From: Candidatus Finniella inopinata
GTDB lineage: Bacteria > Pseudomonadota > Alphaproteobacteria > Paracaedibacterales > CAITNM01
Length of the DNA: 42,486 nucleotides
Assembly (NCBI GenBank): GCA_945860985.1
Contig: CAMASM010000003.1
Location: 1-42,486, forward strand
Direction of reading: 5' to 3'
Under the pieces are notes generated by a model. The model ran no database searches. It was not told where the DNA came from and saw only the letters and a program-made list of their open reading frames with translations. This document shows, piece by piece, positions 9,761 to 41,072 of the stretch (positions are counted from its first letter, which is position 1; every line of letters begins with the position of its first letter). A program made the position numbers and the translations under genes.

Positions 9761-9863
9761 TTTCTAGCAATCACATAGTTTCTTACAATTTTCATAAAAG
9801 CCTATTAACTATTTTTTTACTTTGTTGTGACAGATTATTATTAAGTAATCTAAGAGAATTGCA

Positions 9864-18847: not shown

Positions 18848-18856
18848 AGCTGTTGG

Positions 18857-19612
18857 TTATTTTTTTTTACCTTTTCTTAAGCTTGGGAAACAACCGCAGC
18901 ATTCCCCATCTTCAATTGCTTGTAGCAATTTTGATACGGCAGCTGATGCGGCGTCTGATGCTTTAGAAAGTCCAAGGTATGAAACATTTACCAGCTTAGC
19001 AATTGTTGGTGTAAATGTTTTTGCTACAGAAATAATTTCAGACTGATGATCTTTTGCTAAGCTTCCAACAGAAGATAAAGAAGCTGGCAAAGCCTTGAAT
19101 AGTTCGCCTAAAAGTAATGGTAAATCTTTATCCATAGTTTCTTTCACAAAAGCCTCACAATTTTTAAGGTCAGCTAGGGCGCTTAATTCTCTTTCGGTTG
19201 TGTCTATGGTATTAATTATCTTTCCAAAAGCTGTATATACTGCGTTTTTATCATCGAAAAAATTTGCAAGTTTTGGAAAATCACCAGGGCTTTGGCGCAC
19301 CCATGCAGCAAGTGATTCGCACATTAGGTATGAAAAATCAGCCCAATATAATTTTTTGTGGCTGTCTCCGCCAATTATACCACCACTAGACAGTAGGTAT
19401 CCGGTAATTTTAAATACGGAACTTTGAGTGCCATCTCTTGAGAAATCTAAAACACACTGTTGCATTGGCATTCTAGCAGCAGGAGTTCTAGCAGCGTCTA
19501 AGATATCATCTACTATTCTTAATTCGACTACTTCATGTGCTGCTGCTGATAGTGCTGCTATACTTAAGCTAAATAATATTAGTGTGTATGTTTTAGTAAA
19601 AAAATTCTTCAT
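18857..19612 (-). CDS. Secreted hypothetical protein with Cys-cluster/polybasic C-terminus
   Basis: ATG 19612 with SD tggaga; signal peptide MKNFFTKTYTLILFSLSIAALSAA; ends ECCGCFPSLRKGKKK. Confidence 0.8.
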   Translation of the reverse strand: MKNFFTKTYTLILFSLSIAALSAAAHEVVELRIVDDILDAARTPAARMPMQQCVLDFSRDGTQSSVFKITGYLLSSGGIIGGDSHKKLYWADFSYLMCESLAAWVRQSPGDFPKLANFFDDKNAVYTAFGKIINTIDTTERELSALADLKNCEAFVKETMDKDLPLLLGELFKALPASLSSVGSLAKDHQSEIISVAKTFTPTIAKLVNVSYLGLSKASDAASAAVSKLLQAIEDGECCGCFPSLRKGKKK

Positions 19613-19682
19613 AACGTTTCTCCACATTTTAAAAGTTAAAACAAAACCAGTTGGTTTCAATGTTTATTCTCAGTTAAAAATA

Positions 19683-19697
19683 TTAAAATATTGTTAA
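19683..19697 (-). promoter_or_regulatory. CtrA-type box TTAA-N7-TTAA
   Basis: Reads ttaacaatattttaa on the minus strand, about 70 bp upstream of ATG 19612. Confidence 0.65.
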
Positions 19698-19761
19698 CCA
19701 GAGATATTTATATGGTCCTATTGATTTTTTTATTTCACTTATGGTTTGAAATAGCTTATAT

Positions 19762-19783
19762 AATCCCGCCAAGTGACGGGATT
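19762..19783 (-). terminator. Hairpin (probable terminator) after the 19794 gene
   Basis: aatcccgcca-ag-tgacgggatt. Confidence 0.55.
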
Positions 19784-19793
19784 CGTTTTTCCT

Positions 19794-20204
19794 TTATTTG
19801 TGGCGTGTTTGACAATGGCATTTTGCTGTGTATCCAGATTCTAATTCCTCTATGAAGTTGGTCATATCTTTGCTTCGTGCTATGTGAACCTTCTTTATTA
19901 GTTCTATAGCGGCCTTAATTTGTTTACTTGTAGAACCAAACGGTGTGCAGGATTCTTCTTTTTTTGTTCTAACAATGGGATTGCCTTCACATATTGCTAT
20001 TTCCGTTACGCCTTCTTTGCTAATGAAATATGCTCGTTCTTTTGCAATTAAAATTTTCCAGGCGTTGCATTTAAATTTAGTGGTGCTTCTTACAACACAG
20101 TGGGTGTCATATTCATCATCACAATCAGAAGAAGGATATATAACGGTTGTGGCTAAGCAAAAAGCCAGCAAAAATATATAATTTTTAATGTTAAAGTTTT
20201 TCAT
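19794..20204 (-). CDS. Secreted Cys-rich hypothetical protein, paralog of 21721..22197
   Basis: ATG 20204 with SD ggag; signal MKNFNIKNYIFLLAFCLATTVIYPS; Cys/Trp pattern shared with the 21721 protein. Confidence 0.8.
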   Translation of the reverse strand: MKNFNIKNYIFLLAFCLATTVIYPSSDCDDEYDTHCVVRSTTKFKCNAWKILIAKERAYFISKEGVTEIAICEGNPIVRTKKEESCTPFGSTSKQIKAAIELIKKVHIARSKDMTNFIEELESGYTAKCHCQTRHK

Positions 20205-20274
20205 AAAGTTCTCCATATCATATGTTGGCAAAATAAAATTAATAAGGTATAATTATTATTTTTGCTTAAATACA

Positions 20275-20289
20275 TTAAAATATGGTTAA
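20275..20289 (-). promoter_or_regulatory. CtrA-type box TTAA-N7-TTAA
   Basis: Reads ttaaccatattttaa on the minus strand, about 70 bp upstream of ATG 20204. Confidence 0.7.
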
Positions 20290-20351
20290 TCTAAAATATA
20301 TATACTAAGATTGACTATGTTTATACTTAGTAAAATTTTAGTAAGGGTGTG

Positions 20352-20500
20352 ATACTATTTCCCGAAAATACCATTAAGCAAAATGGATTCCCGCCGGAGT
20401 TTATCCTCGACCCGATCGGGGACGGGAATGACATAATTACCGCTGTTTTTGTCATTCCCGTGAAAACGGGAATCCACAATGAAAAATCGGGAAAGGGTAT
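20352..20500. repeat. REP/dRS3-like palindrome doublet inside a small MITE-like element
   Basis: tggattcccg...cgggaatgac (20384-20432) and gtcattcccgtgaaaacgggaatcca (20451-20476) in inverted orientation; outer arms atactatttcccga / tcgggaaagggtat. Confidence 0.8.
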
Positions 20501-20518
20501 AATTTTGTATTTGTGTAG

Positions 20519-20917
20519 TTAACAACAGCAAAGTCTTTTTAAGCAATTTCTCAAACATTGTGGTATGCACCATAAAAGGCAACATTCTGGTTGAGGGTCA
20601 GTAGTTTCTGCATGCTTAATCAATGTACTGCTTGCAGTAGGAACGTGAGTGGGTGGAAAAGTGTCGTATGTTTGCCCGGAAGCCATTAGTCCTCTTATTG
20701 TTACTTGTTTTATTATTTGCTGCATTAAGCCTACGCTTATGGCTTTGTCACTACTTATTGTGAATCCTCCTCCTTCGTGAAATTCAATCTTAAAATCTTT
20801 GTTTATTACCGTTTCTATTATTGCATGTCTGCGTGATTCCATGTCATCTTCTGATGTGTACAGGGATGTAAGGCTAAAACAAATAAACAGTGGTATAAAT
20901 AGGTGATAACTAGTCAT
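20519..20917 (-). CDS. Secreted hypothetical protein with Cys-rich C-terminus
   Basis: SD ggag; hydrophobic N-terminus; ends CCLLWCIPQCLRNCLKRLCCC. Confidence 0.75.
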   Translation of the reverse strand: MTSYHLFIPLFICFSLTSLYTSEDDMESRRHAIIETVINKDFKIEFHEGGGFTISSDKAISVGLMQQIIKQVTIRGLMASGQTYDTFPPTHVPTASSTLIKHAETTDPQPECCLLWCIPQCLRNCLKRLCCC

Positions 20918-21168
20918 AGATGCTCCAAATACTTGACGAAGTGGTGGAATTTTGATGTTGTTATTTTCAAATTTGACAACAAATTTTGATTTATATCTTT
21001 TAAGATATTGCAGAATTATTTGTAATTGTCGATGGTTTTTGTAACCTGGGGAGCTAATTTTTTAAACTTATATTCTTTATAAACAAATCAATAAACTTAG
21101 CGTATGAAAAATAAACCACAGACTTCCTGTCATAGTTTATGTTATTTGTAATAGAGTTAATGAATAAT

Positions 21169-21615
21169 TTACTCAAATAGCCATTTTAAAGGCCGTGGTA
21201 TTAAACTAGAAAACCAGCATTTCTTTTTTTTGTGAGGGCTAAGCTTACAATTGCTTGTGCTATCGTCACTATCACTATCATCACACTCGGAGTCGCTTGA
21301 CAGTATGTCGTCTGATCTTCTGTAGCGTTCAATTTCACGTAAGGCCACTTCGTCCATGAGTTTTATGGTGCTAAGTAATTTAATTGTTAACCCTTCGCAT
21401 AGTTCTTGGTAACAAGTTATTTTAGTGGTTATCTTATGTGGGCCGAGATATTCCCTGATAACTTCAAATTTATCGCAATCTTCGTCATTTGTTATGCGCA
21501 TTTGCAAGAATTTACTACATGCTTCATCATTTTCAAAAGGTGTTTCGCACCCATACACGCATGAAAAACTCAAACAAACAAGTAATATAAATGAATGGAA
21601 AATAGTTTTTTTCAT
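21169..21615 (-). CDS. Secreted (possibly lipoprotein) hypothetical protein with acidic Ser/Asp tract and basic-aromatic tail
   Basis: SD aaggag; signal MKKTIFHSFILLVCLSFSCVYG-C; ends KKKKCWFSSLIPRPLKWLFE. Confidence 0.78.
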   Translation of the reverse strand: MKKTIFHSFILLVCLSFSCVYGCETPFENDEACSKFLQMRITNDEDCDKFEVIREYLGPHKITTKITCYQELCEGLTIKLLSTIKLMDEVALREIERYRRSDDILSSDSECDDSDSDDSTSNCKLSPHKKKKCWFSSLIPRPLKWLFE

Positions 21616-21676
21616 AAATGCTCCTTATTTAATTATTAAAAAAAATAAAAACTAGAACTTATTTTCTGGTTTCAAG

Positions 21677-21702
21677 AAGATCCCACCATTTGGCGGGATC
21701 TT
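21677..21702 (-). terminator. Hairpin (probable terminator) after the 21721 gene
   Basis: aagatcccacca-tt-tggcgggatctt, similar to the 19762 hairpin. Confidence 0.6.
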
Positions 21703-21720
21703 TTGTTTTTGACTGGTTTA

Positions 21721-22197
21721 TTAGTCGCAGTCTCTTCTAGGTTTTGTAGGACATGGGCACTTTTCATATTCTGAAATTAGTTGCTCAAAGTAACATTTGG
21801 TGAATCTACTATTTGCAGCACATAGAACTTTTAGTAGATGTATTGCTTGAACTGTTTCTTTTTGTGTTTGTTTGGTAATACATCCATGTGAATCAATTGT
21901 TACTGTTCCGCAATGGCCTAATTTTACACTTAATAGACCACTTATATAAGATCCGCTACAGTCGCTATTTAACACTGCTGTCCATTTACAAGTATTTGGT
22001 GCTACGTATTCTGGTTCCTCAATACATGGTAGAGGCTTCACTACTGGCTTAGTAGGTGGCTTAGAAGGCCTGCCACATGATAACATATCATCTGTCATGT
22101 CGCCGCCGCCTTGGTAGCGTCCTGATGAGTAAGCAGCAGTTGTGCCAAGACAAACAGCTAATAATAGTACGATATTTTTAATTCTAAAGTTTTTCAT
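21721..22197 (-). CDS. Secreted Cys-rich hypothetical protein, paralog of 19794..20204
   Basis: ATG 22197 with SD ggag; signal MKNFRIKNIVLLLAVCLGTTAAYS; Pro-rich linker then Cys-rich domain. Confidence 0.8.
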   Translation of the reverse strand: MKNFRIKNIVLLLAVCLGTTAAYSSGRYQGGGDMTDDMLSCGRPSKPPTKPVVKPLPCIEEPEYVAPNTCKWTAVLNSDCSGSYISGLLSVKLGHCGTVTIDSHGCITKQTQKETVQAIHLLKVLCAANSRFTKCYFEQLISEYEKCPCPTKPRRDCD

Positions 22198-22264
22198 TTT
22201 ATTCTCCATATAAATTAAGTTAATAAAGATCGTCTGATCCAATTGTTATTATGGAGATAAATTA

Positions 22265-22279
22265 TTAAATTTCTCTTAA
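22265..22279 (-). promoter_or_regulatory. CtrA-type box TTAA-N7-TTAA
   Basis: Plus strand ttaaatttctcttaac, about 67 bp upstream of ATG 22197. Confidence 0.65.
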
Positions 22280-22429
22280 CAAAATAAAAAAAAATACTTT
22301 GTGTCTATTTTTTTTTACAATGATAATTTAAAAAATAAAGTATATGTAAATATAGTCCATTATTTTTACGTGTCATTAAACATGCCATACGTTTTGTGGC
22401 ATTTGCATGTGGCATAAAAATTATAAATC

Positions 22430-22890
22430 TAACGCAATGTGCAGGTTTTAATTTAATCTCCACAACGATAGCCGACGTCCCGCAGCCCAGACCATACCTT
22501 TATACACATCTTTTTTCCTCCATTTGATTCAAAGCTGTTATGTTTAGGCATACCCAACCCGTCATCATGAGGAGCCCTTTAACATGGCGTAAAGCTTGAG
22601 TTTTGTAAGACGTCTTTGTGAGCTCCGCAGGAGCGTAACAATCCAGTGATTTGCATCAATATTGAATTTATAGGACTGGATCGCGACGCTACGCTCGCGA
22701 TGACGAGATCAGGTCATTACGTTCAAGTCCACCCTTGGGTGGTGGGTTACTCATGATGACGTAGAGTTATAGATTTTTCCATATATAATCTCGAAGATAT
22801 GTATAAAGGTATGGTCTGGTCCGCGGGACGTAGAAATACACTAAGCATGGTAAATCAAATGTTTTTTAAAAAAACTTGTACACTGCGTAA
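22430..22890. mobile_element. Composite nested MITE/palindromic element (inverted relative of the 41166-41410 element)
   Basis: 22430-22493 matches the reverse complement of about 41344-41406, and 22813-22890 matches the reverse complement of about 41170-41245; concentric inverted repeats 22475-22512/22794-22831, 22560-22577/22744-22761 and 22611-22647/22675-22705. Confidence 0.85.
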
Positions 22891-22931
22891 TCTATTACAG
22901 AACCACGAGACATGCTTCCATGGAGTTTTCT

Positions 22932-23213
22932 TTATGTTTTATCATTAGCTAAAATGTTTTGACTTAGGCACCAGCGCCTAAAAAATTTTCTTCCAGCATG
23001 ATTGTATGTGTTAAGGTTGTATTTTTTTATATTTGTTTCATGTTCTGAGCAATCACATGTTTTGGATGCTTTAATTGGAGGAGGACGCATTTTGGTGTAT
23101 TTTGGGGCAGTTTCGGGTGCTAAAAAATTTTCGTCGTTCTGTTGAGCGGGGTATAAATTTGTGCAAAGGCAAATAGCTAATAATGCACAATTTTTTGTGA
23201 TAAAACTTATCAT
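22932..23213 (-). CDS. Small secreted hypothetical protein
   Basis: SD tggaga; signal-like N-terminus ending LYPA; CtrA-type box upstream. Confidence 0.6.
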   Translation of the reverse strand: MISFITKNCALLAICLCTNLYPAQQNDENFLAPETAPKYTKMRPPPIKASKTCDCSEHETNIKKYNLNTYNHAGRKFFRRWCLSQNILANDKT

Positions 23214-23273
23214 TTACTTCTCCATAGCGAGATAAAAAGTATTTTTCTACTTACTAATCATGGAATAAAGGCA

Positions 23274-23288
23274 TTAATATTATGTTAA
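23274..23288 (-). promoter_or_regulatory. CtrA-type box TTAA-N7-TTAA
   Basis: Reads ttaacataatattaa on the minus strand, about 60 bp upstream of ATG 23213. Confidence 0.65.
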
Positions 23289-23365
23289 TTTGCAATAAAA
23301 ATTTGAGTGTGATTTGCGAAATTTAAGTCTTTATATGAGCTTGGCTATTAAAATCAAAACGACTA

Positions 23366-24568
23366 TTACCTTAATTGGGCTATGGCTTTTTTTATTCTGC
23401 TGCAAGCTTTTTCTAAATTGCTCATGCTGGTGGCATATGAGATGCGAAAATATGGAGATAAGCCAAATCCATCTCCGCTTACTGTGGCAACATGGTGATT
23501 TTCTAGTAAATGGGTACAAAAATCGTTATCTGTTTGTAAAATTTTTCCGTCAATAGTGGTTTTTCCAATTATTCCCTTACACCCAATGTACAAGTAAAAA
23601 GCGCCGTTGGGTTTGATTAATTGCAGTTCTTTTATGTCAGTTAATTCATTTAATACAAAATCACGACGTTTGCAAAAACTTGCGCGCCATTCCTTTAAAA
23701 AATCATGGGGACCATTAATAGCAGCAACCGCTGCTGCCTGGGATATTGATGATGGATTTGAAGTGCTCTGTGATTGTAAGTTAGTCATAGCGTTAATAAG
23801 GTGGCTAGGGCCTGCTCCATAGCCGATTCTCCAACCGGTCATGGAATAGGCTTTTGAAACTCCATTAACTACTAGAGTACGCTCTACCAAATCAGGAGCA
23901 ACATTTAAGATGTTAGTAAATTTTGTATCATCGTAAACAAGGTATTCGTATATATCATCGGTTAAAATAGTAATATGGGGATTAGAGCGTAATACTTCAG
24001 CTAGGCTTAACAGTTCATCTGCATTATAAACACAACCAGTTGGGTTTGATGGGGAATTTAGAATAAGCCATTTGGTTTTTGGCGTTATTGCTTTATCTAG
24101 TTGCTCTGCTTGTATTTTGAAATTATTTTCGATAGAGCAATGAATAAAAACAGGTATGCCTTCGAATAGAGACACTATGTCAGGATAGGAAACCCAATAT
24201 GGAGCCGGAATGATTACTTCATCACCTTTGTTTAAAGTTGCCATTAGCGCATTGAAGATAACTTGCTTTCCACCTGTGCTGGCTATAATTTGTTCATGAC
24301 TGTAGGTCAGTCCATTATCTTTTTTTAGTTTTTGCGCTATTGCTGCTTTTAAATCCGCCGTTCCACCTATTGCAGTGTATTTGGTTTGTCCTTTGGCCAT
24401 GGCTTCTATGGCTGCTTCTTTAATCCATTGAGGGGTATCATAATCTGGTTCTCCTGCGCTTAGGCTAATTACATCCTTTCCCTCTGCCCTCATAGCAGCA
24501 GCTTTTGCAACCATTGCGAAAGTAGGGGAGGGTTTTATTGAATTCATTCGCTGTGCTAGGCTGACCAT
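23366..24568 (-). CDS. aspC: Aspartate aminotransferase (class I PLP-dependent)
   Basis: GEPD, PAPYWVSY, LNSPSNPTG, DDIYE, SKAYSMTGWRIG. Confidence 0.92.
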   Translation of the reverse strand: MVSLAQRMNSIKPSPTFAMVAKAAAMRAEGKDVISLSAGEPDYDTPQWIKEAAIEAMAKGQTKYTAIGGTADLKAAIAQKLKKDNGLTYSHEQIIASTGGKQVIFNALMATLNKGDEVIIPAPYWVSYPDIVSLFEGIPVFIHCSIENNFKIQAEQLDKAITPKTKWLILNSPSNPTGCVYNADELLSLAEVLRSNPHITILTDDIYEYLVYDDTKFTNILNVAPDLVERTLVVNGVSKAYSMTGWRIGYGAGPSHLINAMTNLQSQSTSNPSSISQAAAVAAINGPHDFLKEWRASFCKRRDFVLNELTDIKELQLIKPNGAFYLYIGCKGIIGKTTIDGKILQTDNDFCTHLLENHHVATVSGDGFGLSPYFRISYATSMSNLEKACSRIKKAIAQLR

Positions 24569-24636
24569 ATGTTTAAAAATTTATTGATTTCGGCCAAATG
24601 TAGCCAATTTTTAATAATAAATCTAGCAAGGGTATT

Positions 24637-25530
24637 ATGGTAGCAACAGTTTTATTTACCGGTGGTAATGGCTTTATTGGTTCAAACTTAGCGAGTTTTT
24701 TGTTTAATCGTGGGTATGAAATTATTTTTTATACCCAAAATTCAAAATTGGTACCGCGTGATTATCGCGTAATTACAAATTTACAAGAGATTGAAAAATT
24801 ACCCATGTTGGATGCGGTGATTAATCTTGCTGGTGCACCAATAATGAAGAGGTGGAATAAAGAATACCAACAGACTTTATATGATAGTAGGATTACAACC
24901 ACCCTTGATTTGATCTCAAGTCTGCGTAAATTTCAACGTATACCTAAAGCTTTTATTAGCGGATCTTCAGTTGGTTATTATTGGGGGCAACAGCTTAAGT
25001 GCTATGAAGATACTCCTGTTCCAGAGGATGAAAATTTTTGTAATCGCTTGTGTGCGGCTTGGGAAGATTCTGCAAAATCTTTACTTGGAGATGACACAAG
25101 GCTTTGCTTTGCAAGGCTTGGTGTGGTGCTTGGCCCCAAAGGTGGAATATTAAAACGTATTGAAAATCAGTTTCGTCTGGGGTTGGGTACGATTTTTGGC
25201 CAAGGTACTCAGGTTATGTCGTGGGTGCACATGGAAGATTGTATTAATGCATTTTGGCATATATTGCAAAATCAAGAACTTAGTGGGCCTTTTAATATTG
25301 TTGCTCCTAAAACGTGTACTAATGCTGAATTTTCTAATTTATTAGCAATGCAGTTTGGTAAGAAATCACCCAAATATTTGCCTGATTGGTTAGTGTCGAT
25401 TATTTTTGGGCAAATGGGAAAAGAAATGCTGCTAAAAGGAGTTTGTGCAGTGCCGAATAGGTTGCAACAAAGCGGATTTTTCTTTAAATATTCTGATATT
25501 AATAGCGCATTGCAAAGTTTTTATTCGTGA
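24637..25530 (+). CDS. TIGR01777/YfcH-family NAD-dependent epimerase-like protein
   Basis: TGGNGFIG, INLAG, SR...T, SSVGYY, WE, G.G.Q.MSWVH..D. Confidence 0.9.
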   Translation: MVATVLFTGGNGFIGSNLASFLFNRGYEIIFYTQNSKLVPRDYRVITNLQEIEKLPMLDAVINLAGAPIMKRWNKEYQQTLYDSRITTTLDLISSLRKFQRIPKAFISGSSVGYYWGQQLKCYEDTPVPEDENFCNRLCAAWEDSAKSLLGDDTRLCFARLGVVLGPKGGILKRIENQFRLGLGTIFGQGTQVMSWVHMEDCINAFWHILQNQELSGPFNIVAPKTCTNAEFSNLLAMQFGKKSPKYLPDWLVSIIFGQMGKEMLLKGVCAVPNRLQQSGFFFKYSDINSALQSFYS

Positions 25531-25539
25531 AATTTTTTT

Positions 25540-26016
25540 ATGACTAAAAAACTTACTCCGCAAGACCAAGAATTGTGGGCAAGTTTTACCAAGGATGTTC
25601 ATCGTACAAAATGTGATAAGGTAATCCCTGAGGAATCAGGGTTTGTTAAAGCTTCTGAAAAGCTTCAATTACCGGTTCCTCATGTGAAGATAACTCAAAA
25701 AGTTGTGGTATTGCATGCAAATGAACTTAGGAACGTTAGAATTGAAGGCCGTATAGATTTACACGGGTTTACTCAAGTTTTAGGTGAGCAGGCCTTAAGA
25801 GATTTTTTAAAAAACTCCATATATAAAGATTGGCGTTGGGTAATTGTTATTACTGGAAAAGGTTCCCCAGGTAACCCCAGTATTTTGCGGGAACAAGTTC
25901 CAAAGTGGTTGCAAAGTATGCCTGAATTAGTTACGGGTTACGCATTTGCTGCGCCAAATGATGGTGGTGCTGGGGCATTTTATGTAAAAATTCGTAGGAA
26001 ACTTCGATTTAAATAA
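25540..26016 (+). CDS. Smr-domain protein
   Basis: IDLHG, VITGKG, GGAGAFYV. Confidence 0.92.
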   Translation: MTKKLTPQDQELWASFTKDVHRTKCDKVIPEESGFVKASEKLQLPVPHVKITQKVVVLHANELRNVRIEGRIDLHGFTQVLGEQALRDFLKNSIYKDWRWVIVITGKGSPGNPSILREQVPKWLQSMPELVTGYAFAAPNDGGAGAFYVKIRRKLRFK

Positions 26017-26128
26017 GTAAAAATAAGTCTCGATAATTTAAAATTATTCTTAAATTTTTTATCTTTGCTTTAGTGTAGTTACAATTTTGCACTGAATTAC
26101 CACACAGGCGAGTAAAAACTGAATATAT

Positions 26129-26143
26129 TTAAAGATTAGTTAA
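26129..26143. promoter_or_regulatory. CtrA-type box upstream of the rseP-bamA-skp-lpxD operon
   Basis: ttaaagattagttaa. Confidence 0.5.
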
Positions 26144-26189
26144 AAAACCCTCTTTTATTTCTCCCTAATATAACGTAACACTATATATA

Positions 26190-29563: not shown

Positions 29564-29565
29564 AA

Positions 29566-30150: not shown

Positions 30151-30152
30151 CT

Positions 30153-31145: not shown

Positions 31146-31160
31146 TTTTAAAAGTTTGAG

Positions 31161-31751: not shown

Positions 31752-31760
31752 AAAATGGAC

Positions 31761-32837: not shown

Positions 32838-32873
32838 GATAATTGTACTGAAATTTTTTGCTATTGCGTTATT

Positions 32874-33854
32874 TTACTTGATTTTTACAATTTTACCAAA
32901 TTCAGCTTCAAGTTCGTTTGTTACTAAATCATGCAATTTTTCTGGTTCACTAAATTCCAAATTTATATTTAATACGGAAACGCTTTTCTTAAATTTTTCA
33001 GGAATTCTTAGGAAATCTTTTGCTGTAGTAATCAAATCAATTTTCCTGCGATATGATATTTTTACCAACCGTTCCAATTCAGGGATTGTGTATGGATGAT
33101 GATCAGGGAATGGGATGAAGTGTTTAACATCGAATCCATAATTTTGTAAAGTGTTGTTAAATTTTTCTGGGTACCCAAGTCCTGCAAAAGCAATTACTTG
33201 TCTTGGATTTATTGCGTCAGTTGTTTTTATATATGCACGAGTTGCGCTTAGAATTCCTTTGGGTAATGCACCATCACCAATAGCCACAACAATATTTGCT
33301 TTGCGCATTCCCCGTTGGGGAGATTCCCGTAATGGCCCCGCTGGAAATACTTTTCCATTTCCAAAACCTTGCAGTGTATCAACTACTAGCAAGCTAATGT
33401 CTTTGTGCAAAGTGTAATTTTGTAGCCCATCATCCATAATAATTACAGTTGCTCCGTGGCTAATGGCTAACTTGGCGGAAAGCACGCGGTCCTCACCTGC
33501 CCAGGTTGTTGCCTTTTCTGCAAGCAATAATGCTTCATCACCTACTTGTAAATAGTTATGCTTGTTTTGGTCAACTCGGATTGAATCTTTTACTACGGCA
33601 CCATAACCGCGACTTAAAATGTGAGGAGTATGTCCTACCTTTTTTAAAATATCAATAAGCGCTATAACGGTTGGGGTTTTACCTGCGCCACCCATTACTA
33701 AATTACCAACGCAAATTACCGGTACAGAAACTTTTTGGGTTTTAACTCGTTTTTCATGCCATAAACTAATGTATTCGTAACCCCAAGATGCAGGTAGTAA
33801 AACTCGGCTTAAAAGGTTGTTTTGGCGCCAAAATTTAGGGGTTAGAAAAAACAT
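32874..33854 (-). CDS. lpxK: Tetraacyldisaccharide 4'-kinase
   Basis: VGNLVMGGAGKTP, SRGYG, GDEALL, MDDGLQ, PAGPLRE, FPDHH, TTAKD. Confidence 0.97.
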   Translation of the reverse strand: MFFLTPKFWRQNNLLSRVLLPASWGYEYISLWHEKRVKTQKVSVPVICVGNLVMGGAGKTPTVIALIDILKKVGHTPHILSRGYGAVVKDSIRVDQNKHNYLQVGDEALLLAEKATTWAGEDRVLSAKLAISHGATVIIMDDGLQNYTLHKDISLLVVDTLQGFGNGKVFPAGPLRESPQRGMRKANIVVAIGDGALPKGILSATRAYIKTTDAINPRQVIAFAGLGYPEKFNNTLQNYGFDVKHFIPFPDHHPYTIPELERLVKISYRRKIDLITTAKDFLRIPEKFKKSVSVLNINLEFSEPEKLHDLVTNELEAEFGKIVKIK

Positions 33855-33856
33855 TT

Positions 33857-34450
33857 TTACACTTTAAGCCTATTAAAATAAAATGGTAAAAAAACAGTAC
33901 ACATAATAATTATATCACATCCTAAGAAAATCAATAGACTATTTTTATTATAATACTGAAGATAATCAATTAAAAAAATTATAGGTGCAATTAGTAATGG
34001 TAACCATGCTAATAATAAATTTAGCGGGTTGGCCTTATAGTTTGATATTGGTACAAATATCATCAGACATGCAATGCAAGTATTTAAAAGCATCCATTGC
34101 ATTGTTATTAGTATTGTTGTTATTAATTCAAATCCAAAAAGTACAAGTAGCAAAGCCATAGGAAAAAGTGTGGTTAGCCAAACACTGAATGCTTTTGCTA
34201 AGGCATAGCTTAAGTTACTTACCCCATTAAAACGGCAATGATCATAAAAACCATCGATTAAATCTTCCTGCTGGGCACTGAACTGCTGGTACACAACAAT
34301 TACAGCACCGATCAGAATCGTCGTTAAATGTGCTAGTTCTATTCCCAAAATAGAATGAAGTATGGTAATCCACAAAAAAACAAAAGGAGCAACCAGAGCG
34401 CATTGGCCTTGGGCTAATATTGAGAGTTTGCAGATCCCATTAAACGTCAC
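33857..34450 (-). CDS. Divergent heme exporter CcmB-like membrane protein
   Basis: 6 TM; F..ED..DG...., AK...WL....P and LPL..P pattern typical of CcmB. Confidence 0.55.
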   Translation of the reverse strand: MTFNGICKLSILAQGQCALVAPFVFLWITILHSILGIELAHLTTILIGAVIVVYQQFSAQQEDLIDGFYDHCRFNGVSNLSYALAKAFSVWLTTLFPMALLLVLFGFELITTILITMQWMLLNTCIACLMIFVPISNYKANPLNLLLAWLPLLIAPIIFLIDYLQYYNKNSLLIFLGCDIIIMCTVFLPFYFNRLKV

Positions 34451-34451
34451 T

Positions 34452-36272
34452 TTAGCCTTTGCTTGATTTTTCGAATTTTTTGCGTTCGTTAGGGTCTAAA
34501 ATTGCTTTACGAATACGAATTGATTTTGGTGTAACTTCTACCCGTTCATCTTCTTCAATATAAGTAATTGCTTGCTCTAGGGTCATAATTTTTGGTGGCG
34601 TTAGGCGAATTGCTTCATCTTTTCCTGAAGCTCGCACGTTGGTAAGCTGCTTAGCTTTCAACGGGTTAACTTCCAAATCGTTATAGCGGCTGTTTTCACC
34701 AATGATCATACCCTCATAAACCTTAGTTCCTGGCACCACAAACATGATTCCGCGTTCTTCAAGCTTCCACAAAGCAAAGCTAACTACTTCACCTGTACCG
34801 TTGGAAATAAGCACTCCATTAGCCCGACCTTCTATACCGCCTTTATGGGCACCATAGCTATGGAACATACGGTTCATCACGCCAGTACCACGAGTAATCG
34901 TTAAAAATTGACCATGAAAGCCAATTAATCCACGAGAAGGTCCGTGGAAGACAATGCGAGTTTTACCGCCACCCGAAGGGAACATGTCTTTCATTCCGGC
35001 TTTGCGTAGGCTTAACGCCTCAACTACAGTACCTACGAAGTCTTCATCAACGTCGATAATAATTTCTTCAATTGGCTCTAATCGTTGGCCAGTTTCTTCA
35101 TCATTTTTATATAAAACCCGCGGACGACTAATTGATATTTCAAAACCCTCACGACGCATGGTTTCAATTAAAACTCCGAGCTGTAATTCCCCGCGTCCGG
35201 CAACTTCAAAAGCATCTTTGTCAGAAGCCTCACTAATCTTAATAGCCACGTTACCTTCTGATTCGCGCATAAGTCGGTCACGCAGGTTTCGTGAAGTAAG
35301 TTTTGTGCCTTCTTGACCAGCAAGCGGTGAATCATTAATTGAAAAGGTCATTGCTAAAGTGGGCGGGTCAATTGGTTGTGCCTTAATGGGCGTAGTCACT
35401 TCCATGGCACAAATCGTATCGGAAACGGTGCTCTTTTCAAGGCCAGCAATGGCAACAATGTCACCGGCATAGGCCTCATCAACTGCAATCCGCTCTAGCC
35501 CACGGAAGCTTAAAAGTTTAGCAATTCGCCCTTGTTCCACTTGCTCTGATGCTTGGTTAAACACGCGTATTGGCATGTTAACTTTAACGGAACCTGTTTC
35601 CACCCTCCCAGTTAAAATACGCCCCAAATACGAATCATATTCCAAGGTTGTTACCAACATCGAAAATGGCCCCTCTGCTTTTTGTTTTGGCGCTGGAACA
35701 TGTTTGACGATTTCTTCAAACATTGGAATAAGATTTTCTTGCGGTTCACCCAGTTCGCGCACGGCCCAACCATTTCGTCCTGATGCGTACAAAATAGGGA
35801 AATCTAACTGCTCATCGCTTGCATCCATGGCGACGAAAAGGTCAAAAATCTCATTTAAAACTTCTTCAGGACGCGCATCTTGACGATCAATTTTGTTGAT
35901 AACCACCATTGGTTGCAATCCTAATTTCAACGCTTTTCCAAGCACAAATTTAGTTTGTGGTAATGGCCCTTCAGCAGCATCCACTAAAATAATTACTCCG
36001 TCCACCATGCTTAAAATTCGCTCAACTTCACCACCAAAGTCAGCGTGCCCTGGAGTATCAACAATGTTAATCCGGTAATCATTCCAGCTTAAGGATGTGC
36101 ACTTTGCCAAAATAGTAATCCCACGCTCACGCTCAAGGTCATTACTATCCATAGCGCGCTCAGCCACATGCTGATTTGCGCGAAAGGTTCCGCTTTGTTT
36201 TAACATATTATCAACCAAAGTGGTCTTTCCATGGTCAACGTGAGCAATGATAGCGATATTACGAAGTTGCAT
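34452..36272 (-). CDS. typA: Translational GTPase TypA/BipA
   Basis: [62 protein letters not shown]. Confidence 0.98.
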
Positions 36273-36394
36273 TTTTAAAAACTCTATTTATAGTAAACCT
36301 GAATTATATATTTTTTAAGATGGAAATACAATTAAAAACTAATCAAGATAATATAATATGCATTATTACTATTTTTTACATAATTTCCAAAATA

Positions 36395-36409
36395 TTAACC
36401 ATCATTTAG
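36395..36409 (+). promoter_or_regulatory. CtrA-type box (1 mismatch)
   Basis: ttaaccatcatttag, about 37 bp upstream of ATG 36447. Confidence 0.5.
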
Positions 36410-36446
36410 TATTGTAAAATTACTGCTTTTGCGGTGGTGAGGAACA

Positions 36447-36950
36447 ATGAAAGTAAATAGCGCAATATTAATTATTTTTACGATTTTTTGTAGAGTATCT
36501 TTTTGTACTTCCCTTGATTTTGTAATTGATATAGACGATGAAAAACCCAGAGCTTGCATAAAAAATAACTGGGTTAGAGAAACAGAATTATCAGTGAATA
36601 AGAATCATATTAACAGTAGAGTAATCAGTCTGCTCTCGCGGCGGTGGTTTTGTAGAAAACTAGCTAATATTAGTGAGGTTGGGGGAAACACCTTGTTTCA
36701 TTGTAGCACTGGACTTTTTATAATTTCTGGTGGCTCTATTAGCCTTTTTCCACCTTTAACAAATTACTTTTTTTTGGCGAGTACGGTTTGTAGCGCTTTG
36801 AATTTAGTTTTAATAGGATTAGCGAGGTATTCTTCAAGTAAGGTTGAAGAAATTGAAATAGAACTTAATGCATTGGGTAAGAGAACAGGATTTTTTGTAA
36901 CAACTTTAACTCCCAAAATTACTAATGATAGAGCCAGTAGCTCAAAATAA
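36447..36950 (+). CDS. Signal-peptide plus 2-TM hairpin protein, paralog family with 39736 and 40476
   Basis: Shared V..L...RW..RK.AN..E..GN.L, two hydrophobic helices, IGLA+.SS..., L..L....GF.V..L.P.I. Confidence 0.8.
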   Translation: MKVNSAILIIFTIFCRVSFCTSLDFVIDIDDEKPRACIKNNWVRETELSVNKNHINSRVISLLSRRWFCRKLANISEVGGNTLFHCSTGLFIISGGSISLFPPLTNYFFLASTVCSALNLVLIGLARYSSSKVEEIEIELNALGKRTGFFVTTLTPKITNDRASSSK

Positions 36951-37029
36951 ATGGACCAATTAAAATAATGGGTTAAAACTTTTTATCCTAGTTATCGGGT
37001 CCAGCCCCAAAATTAAAAATAATAAAAAT

Positions 37030-37059
37030 TTGACGTAGATTACGATAAAAGTATATATT
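37030..37059 (+). promoter_or_regulatory. Putative sigma70 promoter of the sirtuin-like gene
   Basis: TTGACG followed after 16-18 nt by TATATA/TATATT. Confidence 0.5.
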
Positions 37060-37090
37060 TTACCAAAATAGTGTATTTTTGAAATTTAAA

Positions 37091-38479
37091 ATGTTTAAAA
37101 TATTTTTATTAAAGTCTTTGTTGGTTATCATCTTTTTTCAAGGCGCTGTATCTTTTTTGGTTGCAGCTGAAGTTTGTTACTTTCCCAGTGATTTAGGGCT
37201 TAGGGGGGACACTGCAACAGTTAAATTTTATCATACGGCATCTGTTTTTGTTTCTGCTGACGATGCCTTTCGGAATCTGATGGATGCAGGTAAGGATACG
37301 ACAGGTGTTAGTTGTCGTGAGTCTGATGGCAAATCTTTTCGTATAGATAAAGGTTACTCAAGTGTTGTTATTTATAGCTTGTATCAACTAACTGATCATA
37401 CACCTAACTCTATTTATGATACAAAGGCTGGTAAAATTTACGTATATCGATTAGGCGATAAAGCTATTAAATACCATGGGGAAGGGGAATATGCTGAATC
37501 TATTGATTTCACAACAAGCTCTAAAATGCACAAACCTCCGCAGTGTGCAAGAGTTAAATATCCTAAGTTGATTAAAGACATTAGTGGTTCAGACACTGTA
37601 GTTATTACTTTTGGGGCAGGTATTTCAGACGGATTTGTTCCAACACTCATAGAGTTTATGGAAGGTATAGGACTTGAAAAAATGCCGTCGCATGATAGAG
37701 CCACTGAAGATAGTTTCCAAAGTTTTATTCATAGTTTGTTTGCAGATCAAAGTAGCATTAGTCGTGTAGGTGGTATATGGGGCACTATATTCAATTGTAA
37801 GCACGAGGTAACCCCTGCTCACAAAGCTTTGTTTGAAATAATCAATATACTTAGGTGGTCAAAAAAAGAAGTCTATGTTTACACAGATAACGTCGATCGC
37901 ATTCACCATAAAGTAGGAATTAAAATTTCTGATTTACATCCTGTCTCGTCTGAATTTCCCGTAAAAGATTTGAAGGATAGAAATGTGGTGGTTTTGGCCT
38001 GTGGACAATCTTTTGATTTTCAAGGAGTCCTTACTGCTATTAATTCATTAGATGAAGGATGTGCAAACATTAAATTTTATTCTTTGAATACTAAGCCGGA
38101 TTCTATTCTTGTTTATGACGACTGTAAAAAAGATAAAGATGGCAACATAATTGATTATGACGCTGATAAATACCATTATTTAGATATGGGTTGGATAGAA
38201 GGTCCTCTTGGTAAAACACTTCCAGAGATTGAATGGTTGCTTCGAGTTGAAAGGGCTATTAACCAGATCCTGTGGCCTATTCAAAGCAAAGAAACACTCT
38301 GGCTTCAAAGAGTATTCCAATGTTTCTATTCTAGAAATCCAATAACTATAGTGCTTTCAAAAGAAGACGTGAGTGAATTGCAGCAATTGGGACAAATTTG
38401 GGCGGAATTACATAAATATGCTGCAAGCTATGGCAGATATGGAAGAAGGCCATTGGCTGCCAGCAGATTATTGAAATAG
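37091..38479 (+). CDS. Secreted protein with a divergent SIR2/sirtuin domain
   Basis: Signal MFKIFLLKSLLVIIFFQGAVSFLVA; ordered sirtuin motifs VITFGAGIS...PT, TPAHKAL, YTDNVDRIHHKVG, DLHP, VVLACGQS, YSLN. Confidence 0.75.
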   Translation: MFKIFLLKSLLVIIFFQGAVSFLVAAEVCYFPSDLGLRGDTATVKFYHTASVFVSADDAFRNLMDAGKDTTGVSCRESDGKSFRIDKGYSSVVIYSLYQLTDHTPNSIYDTKAGKIYVYRLGDKAIKYHGEGEYAESIDFTTSSKMHKPPQCARVKYPKLIKDISGSDTVVITFGAGISDGFVPTLIEFMEGIGLEKMPSHDRATEDSFQSFIHSLFADQSSISRVGGIWGTIFNCKHEVTPAHKALFEIINILRWSKKEVYVYTDNVDRIHHKVGIKISDLHPVSSEFPVKDLKDRNVVVLACGQSFDFQGVLTAINSLDEGCANIKFYSLNTKPDSILVYDDCKKDKDGNIIDYDADKYHYLDMGWIEGPLGKTLPEIEWLLRVERAINQILWPIQSKETLWLQRVFQCFYSRNPITIVLSKEDVSELQQLGQIWAELHKYAASYGRYGRRPLAASRLLK

Positions 38480-38543
38480 TAAATTCTCTGCATGTTTGCT
38501 GTGAGTATCCATCAGTTTAGAGGTGGTTCCTAAATGGGGCGCC

Positions 38544-39524
38544 TTAGCAGCAGCCATGGCATCTAGCAAGATCTCGCCATAACCAAGAGAAGAATCTAAC
38601 AGATATGGCATTTAGCAAGGTTCCTAGATAACCAGGTTGAGGATGTAAGAGAGATAAATCTGCCCCGGCTTCTTTAAGGATTGGTCTAACTCTTTCTAAG
38701 AATGTATCTTCCACAATAGGTTCTCTCCCTTCGCCAGTAGCCCATTTACGGTAATCAAGCCACTGCTTCCTATAAAGCTCAGCATGCGAGGTTCTTTGAC
38801 CATTAGCACGTTTATACCGCACACGATTCACACTACTCCAGCAATTTGAAAAAGTTTCGTGACACCCGAACTTGGGTTTGAGGAAAGATATTTTTGGGGC
38901 AAGATATCTAAGAGTGAGTCTTTTGAAGAAAGGAAGAGCTGATTCTACTTGACGTCTAAGGTCTGCATGCTTGCTATCACTATGAATCACTTCCCAATAG
39001 CTTTTTAAAATGATACTACGTCTTCTCTGCGTTAAAAATTCTGCCGCTTCAGTGCAAAACGCATATAAATCAGCAGAAGGAGCCTCGGTAAGGAAGCTAT
39101 TTGCTTGAAAATGTGGATTGGCTGCGTTGCATAATTCCCATAGGAAGCTTTCGGCAAAAACAAGCAAATTGTTATGGTTTTGGGATATTAGAATCTCTTT
39201 TGTTTGCGCGTGCCAGCATGCACCAGTTCTCGTTTCTCCAATTCTTAGAGCAATTGTTCCATGCAACCCTGTAACATCTTCTAGCAATTTTTGAGCCAAA
39301 GTGCTGATGCTCAGTGAGCTGAGAAACCTAATGGTTGAGTCAGGTATGTCTGCCTCTACTTGAACACAGCCTAGAATAAGGCGCGAAGTAGCAACTGAAG
39401 GTGAAGCTGCTGCAGCTGCAGCAGCTGATGACGTCGGCCTAAAATCAGCAGATTCCTCTGCTAAGCACGCTGCGCTCAGTGAAACCGTAAGTAAACTCAT
39501 AAAGAGTAACATTTTATTAAACAT
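38544..39524 (-). CDS. Secreted hypothetical protein, possible zincin-like fold with degenerate HExxH
   Basis: SD aaggag; signal peptide, poly-Ala linker; GACW....KEILIS, FLWELCNAAN, YAFCTEAAE; ends RCHGCC. Confidence 0.75.
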   Translation of the reverse strand: MFNKMLLFMSLLTVSLSAACLAEESADFRPTSSAAAAAAASPSVATSRLILGCVQVEADIPDSTIRFLSSLSISTLAQKLLEDVTGLHGTIALRIGETRTGACWHAQTKEILISQNHNNLLVFAESFLWELCNAANPHFQANSFLTEAPSADLYAFCTEAAEFLTQRRRSIILKSYWEVIHSDSKHADLRRQVESALPFFKRLTLRYLAPKISFLKPKFGCHETFSNCWSSVNRVRYKRANGQRTSHAELYRKQWLDYRKWATGEGREPIVEDTFLERVRPILKEAGADLSLLHPQPGYLGTLLNAISVRFFSWLWRDLARCHGCC

Positions 39525-39577
39525 TTATTTTGTCTCCTTGGGCTTATAATCTGATTAGCTTGACTCATCAGATTAAC

Positions 39578-39686
39578 TTAAATTGCATTTAAACAATGTA
39601 TTGCTAATTTTACGTTAATTATAAGAAATATTTCTCATTTTGATCTGGCCTCCAATAAATAAATATTGCCGTTAACTAAATATAAA
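39578..39686. promoter_or_regulatory. Divergent promoter region with three CtrA-type boxes
   Basis: ttaaattgcatttaa (39578-39592, perfect), ctaattttacgttaa (39604-39618, 1 mismatch), ttaactaaatataaa (39672-39686, 1 mismatch). Confidence 0.55.
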
Positions 39687-39735
39687 GATCTGTGTGTGAG
39701 TCTATAATCACAGGATTTAACGTTTGGTGAACACA

Positions 39736-40335
39736 ATGATACTAAAATACAAATTTTTTGCACTTGTTACGAGCATAGGGATAGCAGGGCTTTTTGGCAC
39801 TTCAGCAGGGAATGAAGTGCTAGAGATGGTTGATAAGGCTACAAGAAAAGTAGATCATGTTATAGAAATGGGTAAGCTTGATGGTCCAAAACACCATGAT
39901 GCTCGTACACATTTAGGTGAGGTGAGATCCAAAGAAATTGTTGGATTACTTGAGCAAGACCATGAAGATAACGTGAAAGATCTTATCAAGTACAGGTGGT
40001 GTTTTAGAAAATGCGCTAACTTTACAGAAGCTTTTGGTAATGGACTTTTGTATTTGGGATCTGGTCTTGCAACTATTGCTGGTGGCGTAAAGATGGTTGG
40101 TTCTGATCACGTGTCTAATATTCTTCTTTTTACTAGTACTGTATGCTTTGCGGGGCACGTTACTTTAATTGGTTTAGCTAAATGTAGTTCAAGAGAAGAA
40201 AGAGAACGTGAAAATCAACTTGATAAGCTAGCGGATGCTGTTGGTTTTTCAGTGACAGCTTTAAATTGTCCTATAGTGGATGAGGATGACGGTAAGGGGG
40301 CAGCACATAGTTCTGCTCTAGCAAAAGTTGTTTGA
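39736..40335 (+). CDS. Signal-peptide plus 2-TM hairpin protein (paralog 2)
   Basis: EDNVKDLIKYRWCFRKCANFTEAFGNGLLY...NILLFTSTVCFAGH...REERERENQLD; start 39724-39736 uncertain. Confidence 0.82.
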   Translation: MILKYKFFALVTSIGIAGLFGTSAGNEVLEMVDKATRKVDHVIEMGKLDGPKHHDARTHLGEVRSKEIVGLLEQDHEDNVKDLIKYRWCFRKCANFTEAFGNGLLYLGSGLATIAGGVKMVGSDHVSNILLFTSTVCFAGHVTLIGLAKCSSREERERENQLDKLADAVGFSVTALNCPIVDEDDGKGAAHSSALAKVV

Positions 40336-40369
40336 AGTATTTTTTCAAGTAGTAGAGTGATGCCTGAGT

Positions 40370-40406
40370 AACCTGGTATGGTTTTGCCATATCCAGGTTC
40401 TTTTTT
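40370..40406 (+). terminator. Intrinsic terminator
   Basis: aacctgg-tatgg-tttt-gccatat-ccaggtt followed by a T-run. Confidence 0.7.
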
Positions 40407-40411
40407 AATTA

Positions 40412-40426
40412 TTAACTAATTTTTAA
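40412..40426 (+). promoter_or_regulatory. CtrA-type box TTAA-N7-TTAA
   Basis: ttaactaatttttaa, about 49 bp upstream of ATG 40476. Confidence 0.65.
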
Positions 40427-40475
40427 TGATATTAGCTCAGCATTTAGGTAGCTCTCCAATTTACATTTAGATGTG

Positions 40476-41072
40476 ATGAAAATAAAAAAATTATTTTTGG
40501 CATTGGCCGCTGCTACACTAATTATAAATTTGCCATTGGTGGCAGCTGATCCATTTGGGCCAAGATGTGGGCCATTTGGGACACCGCTACCTGATGAAAT
40601 CTCAAGTCCTCCTAGATTAGCACAATGTGGTGCATTAGAGAAAAAAGGCCACGAAGCTAATGTAATTTCACGAGCCAGTAGGGTAGTTAGTGCATTAGAG
40701 AAAGACTATGAAGATAATGTAAGTTCACTAATTCGAAGTAGGTGGATTTTTAGAAAAAGCGCTAATGTGGCTGAGGTACTTGGTAATGGCTTTTTGTATA
40801 TTGGAGCTGGGTCTTCAACAGTTGCTGGTGGAGTAGCAATGGTGGGTTCTCAGAGTATAGCCAATATACTTCTTTTCTCTAGTACAGTATGCTTTGCTGC
40901 GCACATAATCTTTATAGGTTTTGCGAAATGTTGTGCACGAGAAGAAAGGGAAAGGGAAAAACAATTGGACGCATTGGCCAAGAGGATTGGCTTTTCCGTA
41001 ATTCCCTTAGAACCCATAATAACAGACGATGCTTTAGGTTCAAATGATGTCAAAACTAAAGCGGATGTTTAG
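40476..41072 (+). CDS. Signal-peptide plus 2-TM hairpin protein (paralog 3)
   Basis: EDNVSSLIRSRWIFRKSANVAEVLGNGFLY...NILLFSSTVCFAAH...REEREREKQLD. Confidence 0.85.
   Translation: MKIKKLFLALAAATLIINLPLVAADPFGPRCGPFGTPLPDEISSPPRLAQCGALEKKGHEANVISRASRVVSALEKDYEDNVSSLIRSRWIFRKSANVAEVLGNGFLYIGAGSSTVAGGVAMVGSQSIANILLFSSTVCFAAHIIFIGFAKCCAREEREREKQLDALAKRIGFSVIPLEPIITDDALGSNDVKTKADV

Follow-up and report, generated by a model that had tools for sequence, protein, structure and literature searches.

Introduction

In Caulobacter crescentus, promoters activated by the response regulator CtrA carry a full TTAA-N7-TTAA(C) site that overlaps the -35 region, as in the class II flagellar genes, ccrM and ctrA P2. 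Here we describe perfect TTAA-N7-TTAA sites, called boxes below, in a 42,486-bp stretch of DNA from Candidatus Finniella inopinata (the window, which is the whole of contig C3) and across the genome to which it belongs, G000. In Ehrlichia, a study from 2011 reportedly linked CtrA to the developmental, transmissible form and to envelope proteins, with a handful of targets. The general role of CtrA is set out in two sources (PMC2877005, PMC6847485). For Brucella abortus, one report states that CtrA controls envelope and periplasmic proteins, among them EipA (10.1101/442541), and that in this host-associated alphaproteobacterium it directly activates genes for exported envelope proteins, to which the predicted G000 targets bear a likeness.

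The organism represented by G000 is uncultured and known only from lake-water metagenomes; a look-up of RNA runs containing window positions 18800-23400 listed none. Its genome assembly comprises 1.66 Mb in 123 contigs with a GC content of 37.6%, and it encodes an ATP/ADP translocase (561.7 bits). Because of this translocase and the genome size, an intracellular lifestyle is suggested, and the organism is probably a reduced, intracellular alphaproteobacterium.

As in C. crescentus, the consensus in G000 includes TTAAC and TTAACCAT variants, the site replaces the -35 element upstream of a sigma-70 -10 element, a box precedes ctrA as well, and the predicted regulon extends to division and envelope genes. 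Unlike in C. crescentus, about 70% of the G000 targets are predicted signal-peptide (SP) proteins, mostly lineage-restricted orphans together with effector-like proteins, and no flagellar, chemotaxis or pilus genes occur among the annotated subset of box genes. The likeness to Ehrlichia is that of an intracellular alphaproteobacterium in which CtrA may be tied to a developmental form and to envelope proteins. In contrast to the handful of targets reported for Ehrlichia, the predicted regulon of G000 holds about 130 genes, with exported orphans dominant and type VI secretion included. The targets in Brucella are conserved envelope proteins within a conventional cell-cycle regulon, whereas those in G000 are mostly fast-evolving proteins confined to one genus. 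CtrA boxes and regulons are already textbook knowledge, and the unusual part here is the content of the regulon. Our full-text literature searches turned up no CtrA regulon made up mainly of exported orphans or effector-like proteins, although supplementary regulon tables (for example those of PMC2877005) may list related predictions.

Our central conclusion is that the box probably marks a class of CtrA-dependent promoters in G000, with about 160 sites and about 130 genes, some 70% of which encode proteins with a Sec signal; binding by CtrA, activation and timing are predicted parts of this reading.

Perfect boxes are enriched in intergenic DNA at a spacing of seven nucleotides

Genes were called with our own dicodon-score open reading frame (ORF) caller, which gave 1,682 genes, 87.6% coding DNA and 209 kb of intergenic DNA. 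A box was defined as a perfect TTAA-N7-TTAA, with positions counted from the box start. The original prediction, which was made from the window alone, had proposed a comparison with a shuffled intergenic background of matched AT content, and for this we used 200 dinucleotide shuffles of the intergenic segments. In these, the N7 spacing was found 48.5 times on average (standard deviation 6.9, maximum 67 in 200 shuffles) against 212 observed boxes, a z of 23.7, and therefore about 160 boxes are in excess. The other spacers showed no such excess: N5 was observed 56 times (z 1.1), N6 64 times (z 2.1), N8 46 times (z -0.4) and N9 33 times (z -1.8). When spacers were compared directly, G000 held 220 intergenic N7 boxes, and every other spacer from N2 to N13 occurred 46 to 77 times. 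Coding DNA had no N7 excess.

These counts bear on the simplest alternative, that the boxes have no regulatory role and reflect AT-rich composition, promoters copied together with paralogues, or a dispersed repeat. The window taken alone would fit that alternative, being only weakly enriched by itself: it contains 10 perfect boxes against 5.47 expected, a count reached in 5 of 100 shuffles. The genome-wide excess over dinucleotide shuffles, confined as it is to N7, speaks against it.

The box takes the place of a -35 element

Nearly all of the intergenic boxes (210 of 220) are followed, on one side or both, by a gene that reads away from the box, and the start codon most often comes 40-60 bp after the end of the box. 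We built a logo from 123 gene-oriented sites. It has C at +4 in 60 of the 123, which makes the first half-site TTAAC. The spacer is rich in A/T, the preferred letters being A at +6 and T at +8 and +9, and downstream there is a TAnnAT element at +26..+31, with A at +27 in 91 sites and T at +31 in 81. The box thus stands at a fixed distance, 11 nt, upstream of a -10 element, and no TTGACA-like hexamer was seen in the logo. The half-sites themselves are 20 nt and 9 nt from the -10 element, neither of which is the distance of a sigma-70 -35 element. Both features are oriented with respect to the gene. Among 143 one-directional spacers, the -10 element was better toward the gene in 80 and away from it in 34, with 29 ties (p 2e-5), and TTAAC read in the direction of the gene 49 times and in the opposite direction 16 times (p 5e-5). 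This significant phase and strand orientation is a further point against boxes without a regulatory role.

We conclude that the box overlaps the -35 region, at about -38 to -24 relative to the predicted transcription start. Since a -10 element is present and no -35 hexamer is recognizable, the pattern is that of activator-dependent promoters, and the layout is accordingly the one expected if the box serves activation. In the mechanism that we propose, phosphorylated CtrA would bind the box, which reads TTAAC-N6-TTAA along transcription, in place of a -35 hexamer. Bound CtrA would then recruit RNA polymerase to the sigma-70-type TAnnAT -10 element, as at the Caulobacter promoters where the site overlaps -35.

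The same architecture could also serve repression, in which case CtrA would bind the boxes and keep the secretome silent while it is active, releasing it when CtrA is degraded. RNA polymerase can be shut out by a protein bound across the core promoter, ctrA P1 and ftsZ are examples of Caulobacter promoters under CtrA repression, and sequence statistics do not give the sign of regulation. However, a -10 element without a recognizable -35 hexamer is what an activator-dependent promoter looks like, and the box lies upstream of the -10 element at its fixed 11 nt rather than over it. We therefore regard repression as unlikely and activation by CtrA as the better account of this layout.

Boxes and orphan genes in the window

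The window contains an island of six orphan genes (18857-23288), situated between anmK and an aminotransferase gene, and a tandem pair (39672-41072). We list the sites and their genes below, with the corresponding sequences of the closest relative, G008, where these were compared.

19683..19697, minus strand: perfect box TTAACAATATTTTAA along transcription, with the -10-like GAGAAT 11 nt downstream; composite score 21.9
18857..19612, minus strand: orphan predicted exported protein, 251 aa from MKNFF; no Pfam family
20275..20289, minus strand: perfect box TTAACCATATTTTAA, -10-like AAAAAT; score 22.7; identical box in G008
19794..20204, minus strand: orphan predicted exported protein, start MKNFNIKN, paralogue of 21721-22197 (family 145); no Pfam family; 44% identical to the G008 orthologue
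22265..22279, minus strand: perfect box TTAAGAGAAATTTAA, -10 CATAAT; score 16.6; G008 has TTAATAGAAATTTAA, a change in the spacer only
21721..22197, minus strand: orphan predicted exported protein, start MKNFRIKN; no Pfam family; 37.5% identity to the G008 orthologue
23274..23288, minus strand: perfect box TTAACATAATATTAA, -10 CATGAT; score 18.5; G008 has TTAACGTAATATTAA, a change in the spacer only
22932..23213, minus strand: small orphan predicted exported protein, 93 aa; no Pfam family; 62% identity in G008
20519-20917 and 21169-21615, minus strand: two island orphans, predicted to be exported, without an upstream box; no Pfam family
40412..40426, plus strand: perfect box TTAACTAATTTTTAA, -10 CAGCAT; score 22.8
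40476..41072, plus strand: orphan predicted exported protein, tandem paralogue of 39736-40335 (56% identical); no Pfam family
39672..39686, plus strand: one-mismatch box TTAACTAAATATAAA; the ATG of 39736-40335 follows after 49 bp; identical in G008
39736..40335, plus strand: orphan predicted exported protein, start MILKY; no Pfam family
39578..39592, no strand assigned: perfect box between 38544-39524 (minus) and 39736 (plus); score below 12 in both orientations, poor -10
38544..39524, minus strand: orphan predicted exported protein, 326 aa, C-terminus ...RCHGCC; no Pfam family
36395..36409, plus strand: one-mismatch box TTAACCATCATTTAG, 37 bp before 36447-36950; no -10 at the usual distance
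9805..9819, plus strand: one-mismatch box TTAACTATTTTTTTA, 44 bp before the orphan 9864-10523 (no Pfam family); score 12.2
26129..26143, no strand assigned: perfect box 46 bp before rseP (M50 peptidase), which is followed by bamA, ompH and lpxD

A motif scan found every box named in the original prediction, that is, the perfect ones at 19683, 20275, 22265, 23274, 39578 and 40412 and before rseP at 26129, and the one-mismatch ones at 36395, 39604, 39672 and 9794/9805. Three more perfect boxes, at 1730, 4639 and 31262, lie inside coding sequence on our ORF map. The boxes had been placed about 37-80 bp before the start codon; measured from box end to the most plausible ATG, the distances are 70, 70, 67, 60, 53, 49, 49, 46, 44 and 37 bp. 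Their orientation was likewise as predicted, with TTAAC along transcription in four of the six perfect boxes and in 36395, 39672 and 9805. The description of the genes as signal-peptide orphans also held, in that the ten adjoining proteins matched no Pfam family (E<=0.01) and have SP-like N-termini.

Five predicted promoters in the window are solid, namely 19683, 20275, 22265, 23274 and 40412. The assumption that the one-mismatch boxes are functional fared less well. It gains support for 39672, probably a weakened real site, since relatives have a box before their second tandem copy at this very distance of 49 bp, an orthologous position. The class as a whole is not enriched and the others lack support. 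Among these, 9805 is a weak candidate. For 36395, no box was found upstream of the 36447-like match in G008, and the 36395 spacer did not align with the G008 loci compared. Part of the spacer around 39578 did not align in the G008 locus either. The rseP-bamA promoter does have the perfect box that had been noticed there, but its better orientation points away from rseP and one half-site in G008 reads CTAA. As functional sites, 39578, 36395, 39604, 9794 and the rseP box 26129 are therefore unsupported.

The original prediction also placed a secretin and an ATPase of the type II or type IV pilus kind in the window, as a putative export route for the orphans, and both are there (secretin at 110-1744, T2SSE-type ATPase at 14389-15783), with a XerC/D-like tyrosine recombinase at 15839-16759. 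No box was found before the secretin or the T2SSE ATPase in the window motif scan.

Genes downstream of boxes mostly encode predicted exported proteins

Signal peptides were called with a heuristic of our own (basic n-region, hydrophobic h-region and no further membrane helices), applied alike to box genes and non-box genes. Tested genes were the 938 with at least 60 bp of upstream spacer, of which 139 have a perfect box 20-100 bp upstream. SP-like proteins were encoded by 96 of these 139 box genes (69%) against 207 of 764 box-free genes (27%), an odds ratio (OR) of 6.0 (p 1e-20). The enrichment upstream of signal-peptide genes that had been proposed as a check was thus found, and it was as strong when each box was assigned one gene by orientation: 93 of 133 (70%) against the same 207 of 764 (OR 6.3, p 9e-21). 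The N-termini of those box-gene products that we read by eye resemble typical signal peptides. Box genes make up about 8% of all G000 genes, and the regulon, which had been put at a secretome of about 9 proteins, amounts by box assignment to about 130 genes genome-wide.

Copying of promoters together with paralogues could produce such an association, and 14 families do hold at least two box genes. The 139 genes nevertheless represent 114 protein families, and when each blastp family is counted as a single gene the SP excess remains (77 of 114).

For a view of what the exported proteins are, we scanned 36 exported-type proteins against Pfam, comprising 26 box-assigned proteins from across the genome and 10 window orphans (two of them without a box). 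No Pfam family was found for 24 of the 36, and loci L145 and L168 gave only doubtful matches, of low complexity or below threshold. The families that did match include ankyrin-repeat proteins (10 paralogues), papain-like proteins (7 paralogues) and three patatin families; LicD, autotransporter, S9 peptidase and L,D-transpeptidase proteins were also matched.

Box genes scored as non-SP include ctrA itself, genes for type VI secretion and lipase (those of VgrG, of a TssB-TssC fusion and of a cytoplasmic patatin), further regulators (MarR, Lrp, LysR and a helix-turn-helix-receiver protein), envelope and division genes (LpxB, MurJ, DivIC/FtsB, PBP1a, MlaD and PlsY) and DNA-related genes (MutS, HolC, GidB and exonuclease III). 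Classic CtrA-type targets are represented among them by ctrA, DivIC/FtsB, MurJ, PBP1a, MutS and GidB. Under the proposed mechanism, exported orphans, ankyrin, patatin, papain-like and autotransporter proteins, type VI secretion, envelope and division genes and ctrA would all come under one control.

Several features of the products themselves were observed. The type VI sheath is a single TssB-TssC (VipA-VipB) fusion of 642 aa, and boxes precede both the fusion and VgrG (G000:C16:8579-10507, G000:C11:21461-23713). A D-[DE]-[IL]-L-G motif lies 5-15 residues past the signal peptide in a subset of box-gene products, for example those of G000:C5:2021-2878, C5:23660-25084, C22:11203-12153 and C38:1396-2721. 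In its strict form it occurs in 7 of 96 box products against 4 of 351 non-box products, and in its loose form in 22 of 96 against 32 of 351. It marks a subset only and was rejected as a hallmark of the regulon; possibly it acts in sorting as a second signal, or it belongs to an N-terminal module that these proteins have in common. Cys/Trp-rich C-terminal tails (...CCLLWCIPQCLRNCLKRLCCC, ...RCHGCC, ...VCCCSCVQ) are present on several exported orphans, including those encoded in the window at 20519-20917 and 38544-39524 and at G000:C5:2021-2878 and C14:3769-4422. C-terminal Cys clusters were likewise discarded as a hallmark, their enrichment being modest (11 of 93 box products against 15 of 354, p 0.01).

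G000 encodes CtrA and a ChpT-like protein

The original prediction had also proposed looking for ctrA, cckA and chpT in the genome. CtrA is encoded at G000:C73:443-1204(-); its match to the equivalog model NF045991 (379.3 bits) exceeds the cut-off of 350, and it shares 62-75% identity with the CtrA proteins of Rhizobium, Novosphingobium and Thalassospira as well as with those of many uncultured alphaproteobacteria. The ctrA gene carries its own box, 91 bp upstream. A ChpT-like protein passes the Pfam HPTransfase cut-off with 36.8 bits and scores 46 against the NCBIfam ChpT cut-off of 225, and a 519-aa hybrid kinase-receiver is a candidate for CckA. We also observed two perfect boxes in the 96 bp that separate the ChpT-like gene from the next gene downstream, which encodes a 431-aa predicted exported orphan (G000:C28:15763-17769).

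G000 has only two Trans_reg_C regulators in all, and three sigma-70-family genes, two of which encode small proteins. With these, another factor could be the one that reads the box, be it the second OmpR-family regulator, a small sigma-70-family protein or an unrelated TTAA-binding protein, and CtrA would then be a bystander. The motif, however, is the textbook CtrA consensus down to its variants, in an alphaproteobacterial genome with a bona fide CtrA. Boxes are carried by ctrA and by division and envelope genes, and the N7 enrichment recurs in other families of the order. The -10 element is sigma-70-like, and half-sites 20 nt and 9 nt away from it fit no -35 element of a sigma factor. We consider a different reader quite improbable and CtrA the likely one.

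Half-sites are retained while the proteins and spacers diverge

The island 18857-23288 is syntenic in G008 (L148). Its six orphans are 37-82% identical between the two genomes, and the flanking housekeeping proteins are 92-98% identical. From these comparisons we conclude that the island proteins evolve very fast at a fixed locus. All four island boxes persist in G008, where any differences fall in the spacer or at +4, and the box before the 18857 orthologue is at the same 70 bp from the ATG in G008 and G012.

The families represented in the window are narrowly distributed. The 18857 family occurs in 12 of 13 genomes of the same genus, in the one genome of a sister genus and in 0 of 16 genomes of other families of the order, and a search with a family profile recovered no more than 21 members from 5.8 billion proteins. 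The 40476 family is present in all 13 genomes of the genus and in 0 of 17 genomes of other genera. In our reading, most proteins of the box regulon are lineage-restricted, fast-evolving orphans, and the island 18857-23288 and the pair 39672-41072 are local samples of a predicted genome-wide regulon.

Upstream of the 40476 family, a perfect TTAAC-N6-TTAA is present in 8 of 12 relatives read and a box with one mismatch in the other four, at 46-77 bp from the ATG and with differing spacers; the thirteenth relative, G013, gave no ATG. The second tandem copy has a perfect box at exactly 49 bp in G011, G002, G004, G009 and, counted from the MKAKF start, G006, and a one-mismatch box at 48 bp in G001. 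Across the genus, half-sites are thus kept and spacers vary before orthologues that are 37-57% identical. Some upstream regions share short similarity, which would be expected of boxes that were merely copied or repeated, but half-sites that stay conserved around diverging spacers speak against this. With the N7-specific genome-wide excess, the SP excess that remains after paralogues are collapsed and the significant orientation of the sites, the reading of the boxes as sequences without a regulatory role is largely refuted, and we give it hardly any credence.

Observations that limit the proposed CtrA-dependent promoter class

Several observations weigh against a regulon of CtrA-dependent promoters or limit its extent. 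Chance would account for about 48 (23%) of the 212 perfect boxes. No excess is seen for N7 boxes with one mismatch (656 against 578-750 across N4-N11), and therefore the motif alone cannot separate one-mismatch sites from chance. The SP fraction is raised behind other spacers as well, in small samples (N5 16/30, N6 12/32, N8 6/13, N9 8/16, N10 12/26), so the association may partly reflect TTAA-rich promoters of exported-protein genes. Both the gene caller and the SP heuristic are crude, and the 27% of all genes scored as SP-like is probably excessive; the heuristic errs in the other direction too, several genes scored non-SP visibly having signal peptides. In the phosphorelay, no CckA equivalog was found among the G000 kinases, where the best CckA model reached only 102 bits against a cut-off of 1000, and the ChpT-like protein passes the Pfam cut-off only.

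Finally, at the 18857 orthologue only G008 and G012 among 9 relatives keep a perfect box. Six of the 9 have a sigma-70-like promoter there, and the seventh, G001, has a weak one-mismatch box. Because most of these relatives lack a perfect box at this orthologue, box control of a given gene is not fixed. The alternative promoter, TGTTTACAAG-N-TCGTAGACTTT (TTTACA-N18-TAGACT), is strongly conserved in L021 and L023-L027, which correspond to G005, G003, G010, G002, G011 and G006, whereas G000, G008 and G012 have the CtrA box instead, an instance of promoter turnover. We considered whether TGTTTACAAG...TCGTAGACTTT marks a second regulon and rejected this, as it occurs once per sampled locus and its composite form was not found in G000. 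From its distribution, we conclude that it is a homologous promoter and not a regulon.

The N7 excess extends through the order

When N7 and N10 spacings were counted over whole genomes, N7 was in excess in most of the 31 genomes from the order, as in the following examples.

G000: N7 315, N10 183
G008: N7 319, N10 161
G012: N7 242, N10 137
G013: N7 261, N10 151
G001-G007 and G010: N7 136-166, N10 93-132
G017: N7 117, N10 30
G023: N7 191, N10 68

We sampled about 300 kb from each of two other families. In the G023 sample there were 32 intergenic N7 boxes (other spacers 4-16), and SP-like proteins were encoded by 7 of 16 box genes against 23 of 117 box-free genes (p 0.05). In the G017 sample there were 18 (other spacers 1-6), and the SP counts, 3 of 12 against 24 of 136, did not differ significantly. 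Three samples from the same genus (109-140 kb), too small for a test of the SP link, gave 5/8, 3/4 and 2/4. A CtrA-box regulon thus looks general in the order, and its 70% exported content may be specific to the G000 lineage, as judged from small samples.

A possible switch for host-interaction proteins

The boxes shared by the predicted regulon suggest that host-interaction proteins are switched on together. Its type VI genes and its phospholipase, ankyrin and protease families are typical of host manipulation. We raise tentatively, as a possibility that falls short of being likely, that CtrA was co-opted in this symbiont and became the only switch governing the bulk of its host-interaction arsenal, which would comprise the type VI apparatus, some 90 exported orphans and the secreted patatin, ankyrin and protease families. 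In that case the life cycle would have two phases, one of them with cells that are high in CtrA, do not replicate and carry a load of secreted proteins for infection, and the CtrA box would offer a handle, obtainable from sequence only, on effectors in uncultured intracellular alphaproteobacteria. Because the degree of takeover varies within the genus and the order, such rewiring would have been recent and repeated. In a lineage that is unculturable, the regulon would tie host interaction to the control of the cell cycle or of development in a way open to testing. It would also allow effector candidates to be picked from sequence alone, by a perfect box with a -10 element 11 nt downstream of it.

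Further observations on the 18857 family and the window

In an alignment of the 18857 family, whose orthologues are 35-38% identical (L019-L027), G-C-F is invariant, mostly as CGCF, and lies shortly ahead of a C-terminus rich in Lys. The G-C-F is not a sortase-type signal, because no hydrophobic segment lies between the motif and the basic tail. In the distant genome G017, one box gene encodes GCGCFG just past the signal peptide. An AlphaFold model of the 18857 family, made from a 10-sequence alignment, is helical with a mean pLDDT of 62 and a pTM of 0.63, and Foldseek returned no match to it in the PDB at E<=0.001.

GC-rich palindromic elements are present in AT-rich spacers of the window at 20232-20518 and 41073-41403. 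They lie around ...CACGGGAATGACA...GTCATTCCCG..., with a long inverted repeat GACGTCCCGCGGCCCAGACCGCG... in addition, and they resemble dispersed REP/RPE-like repeats.

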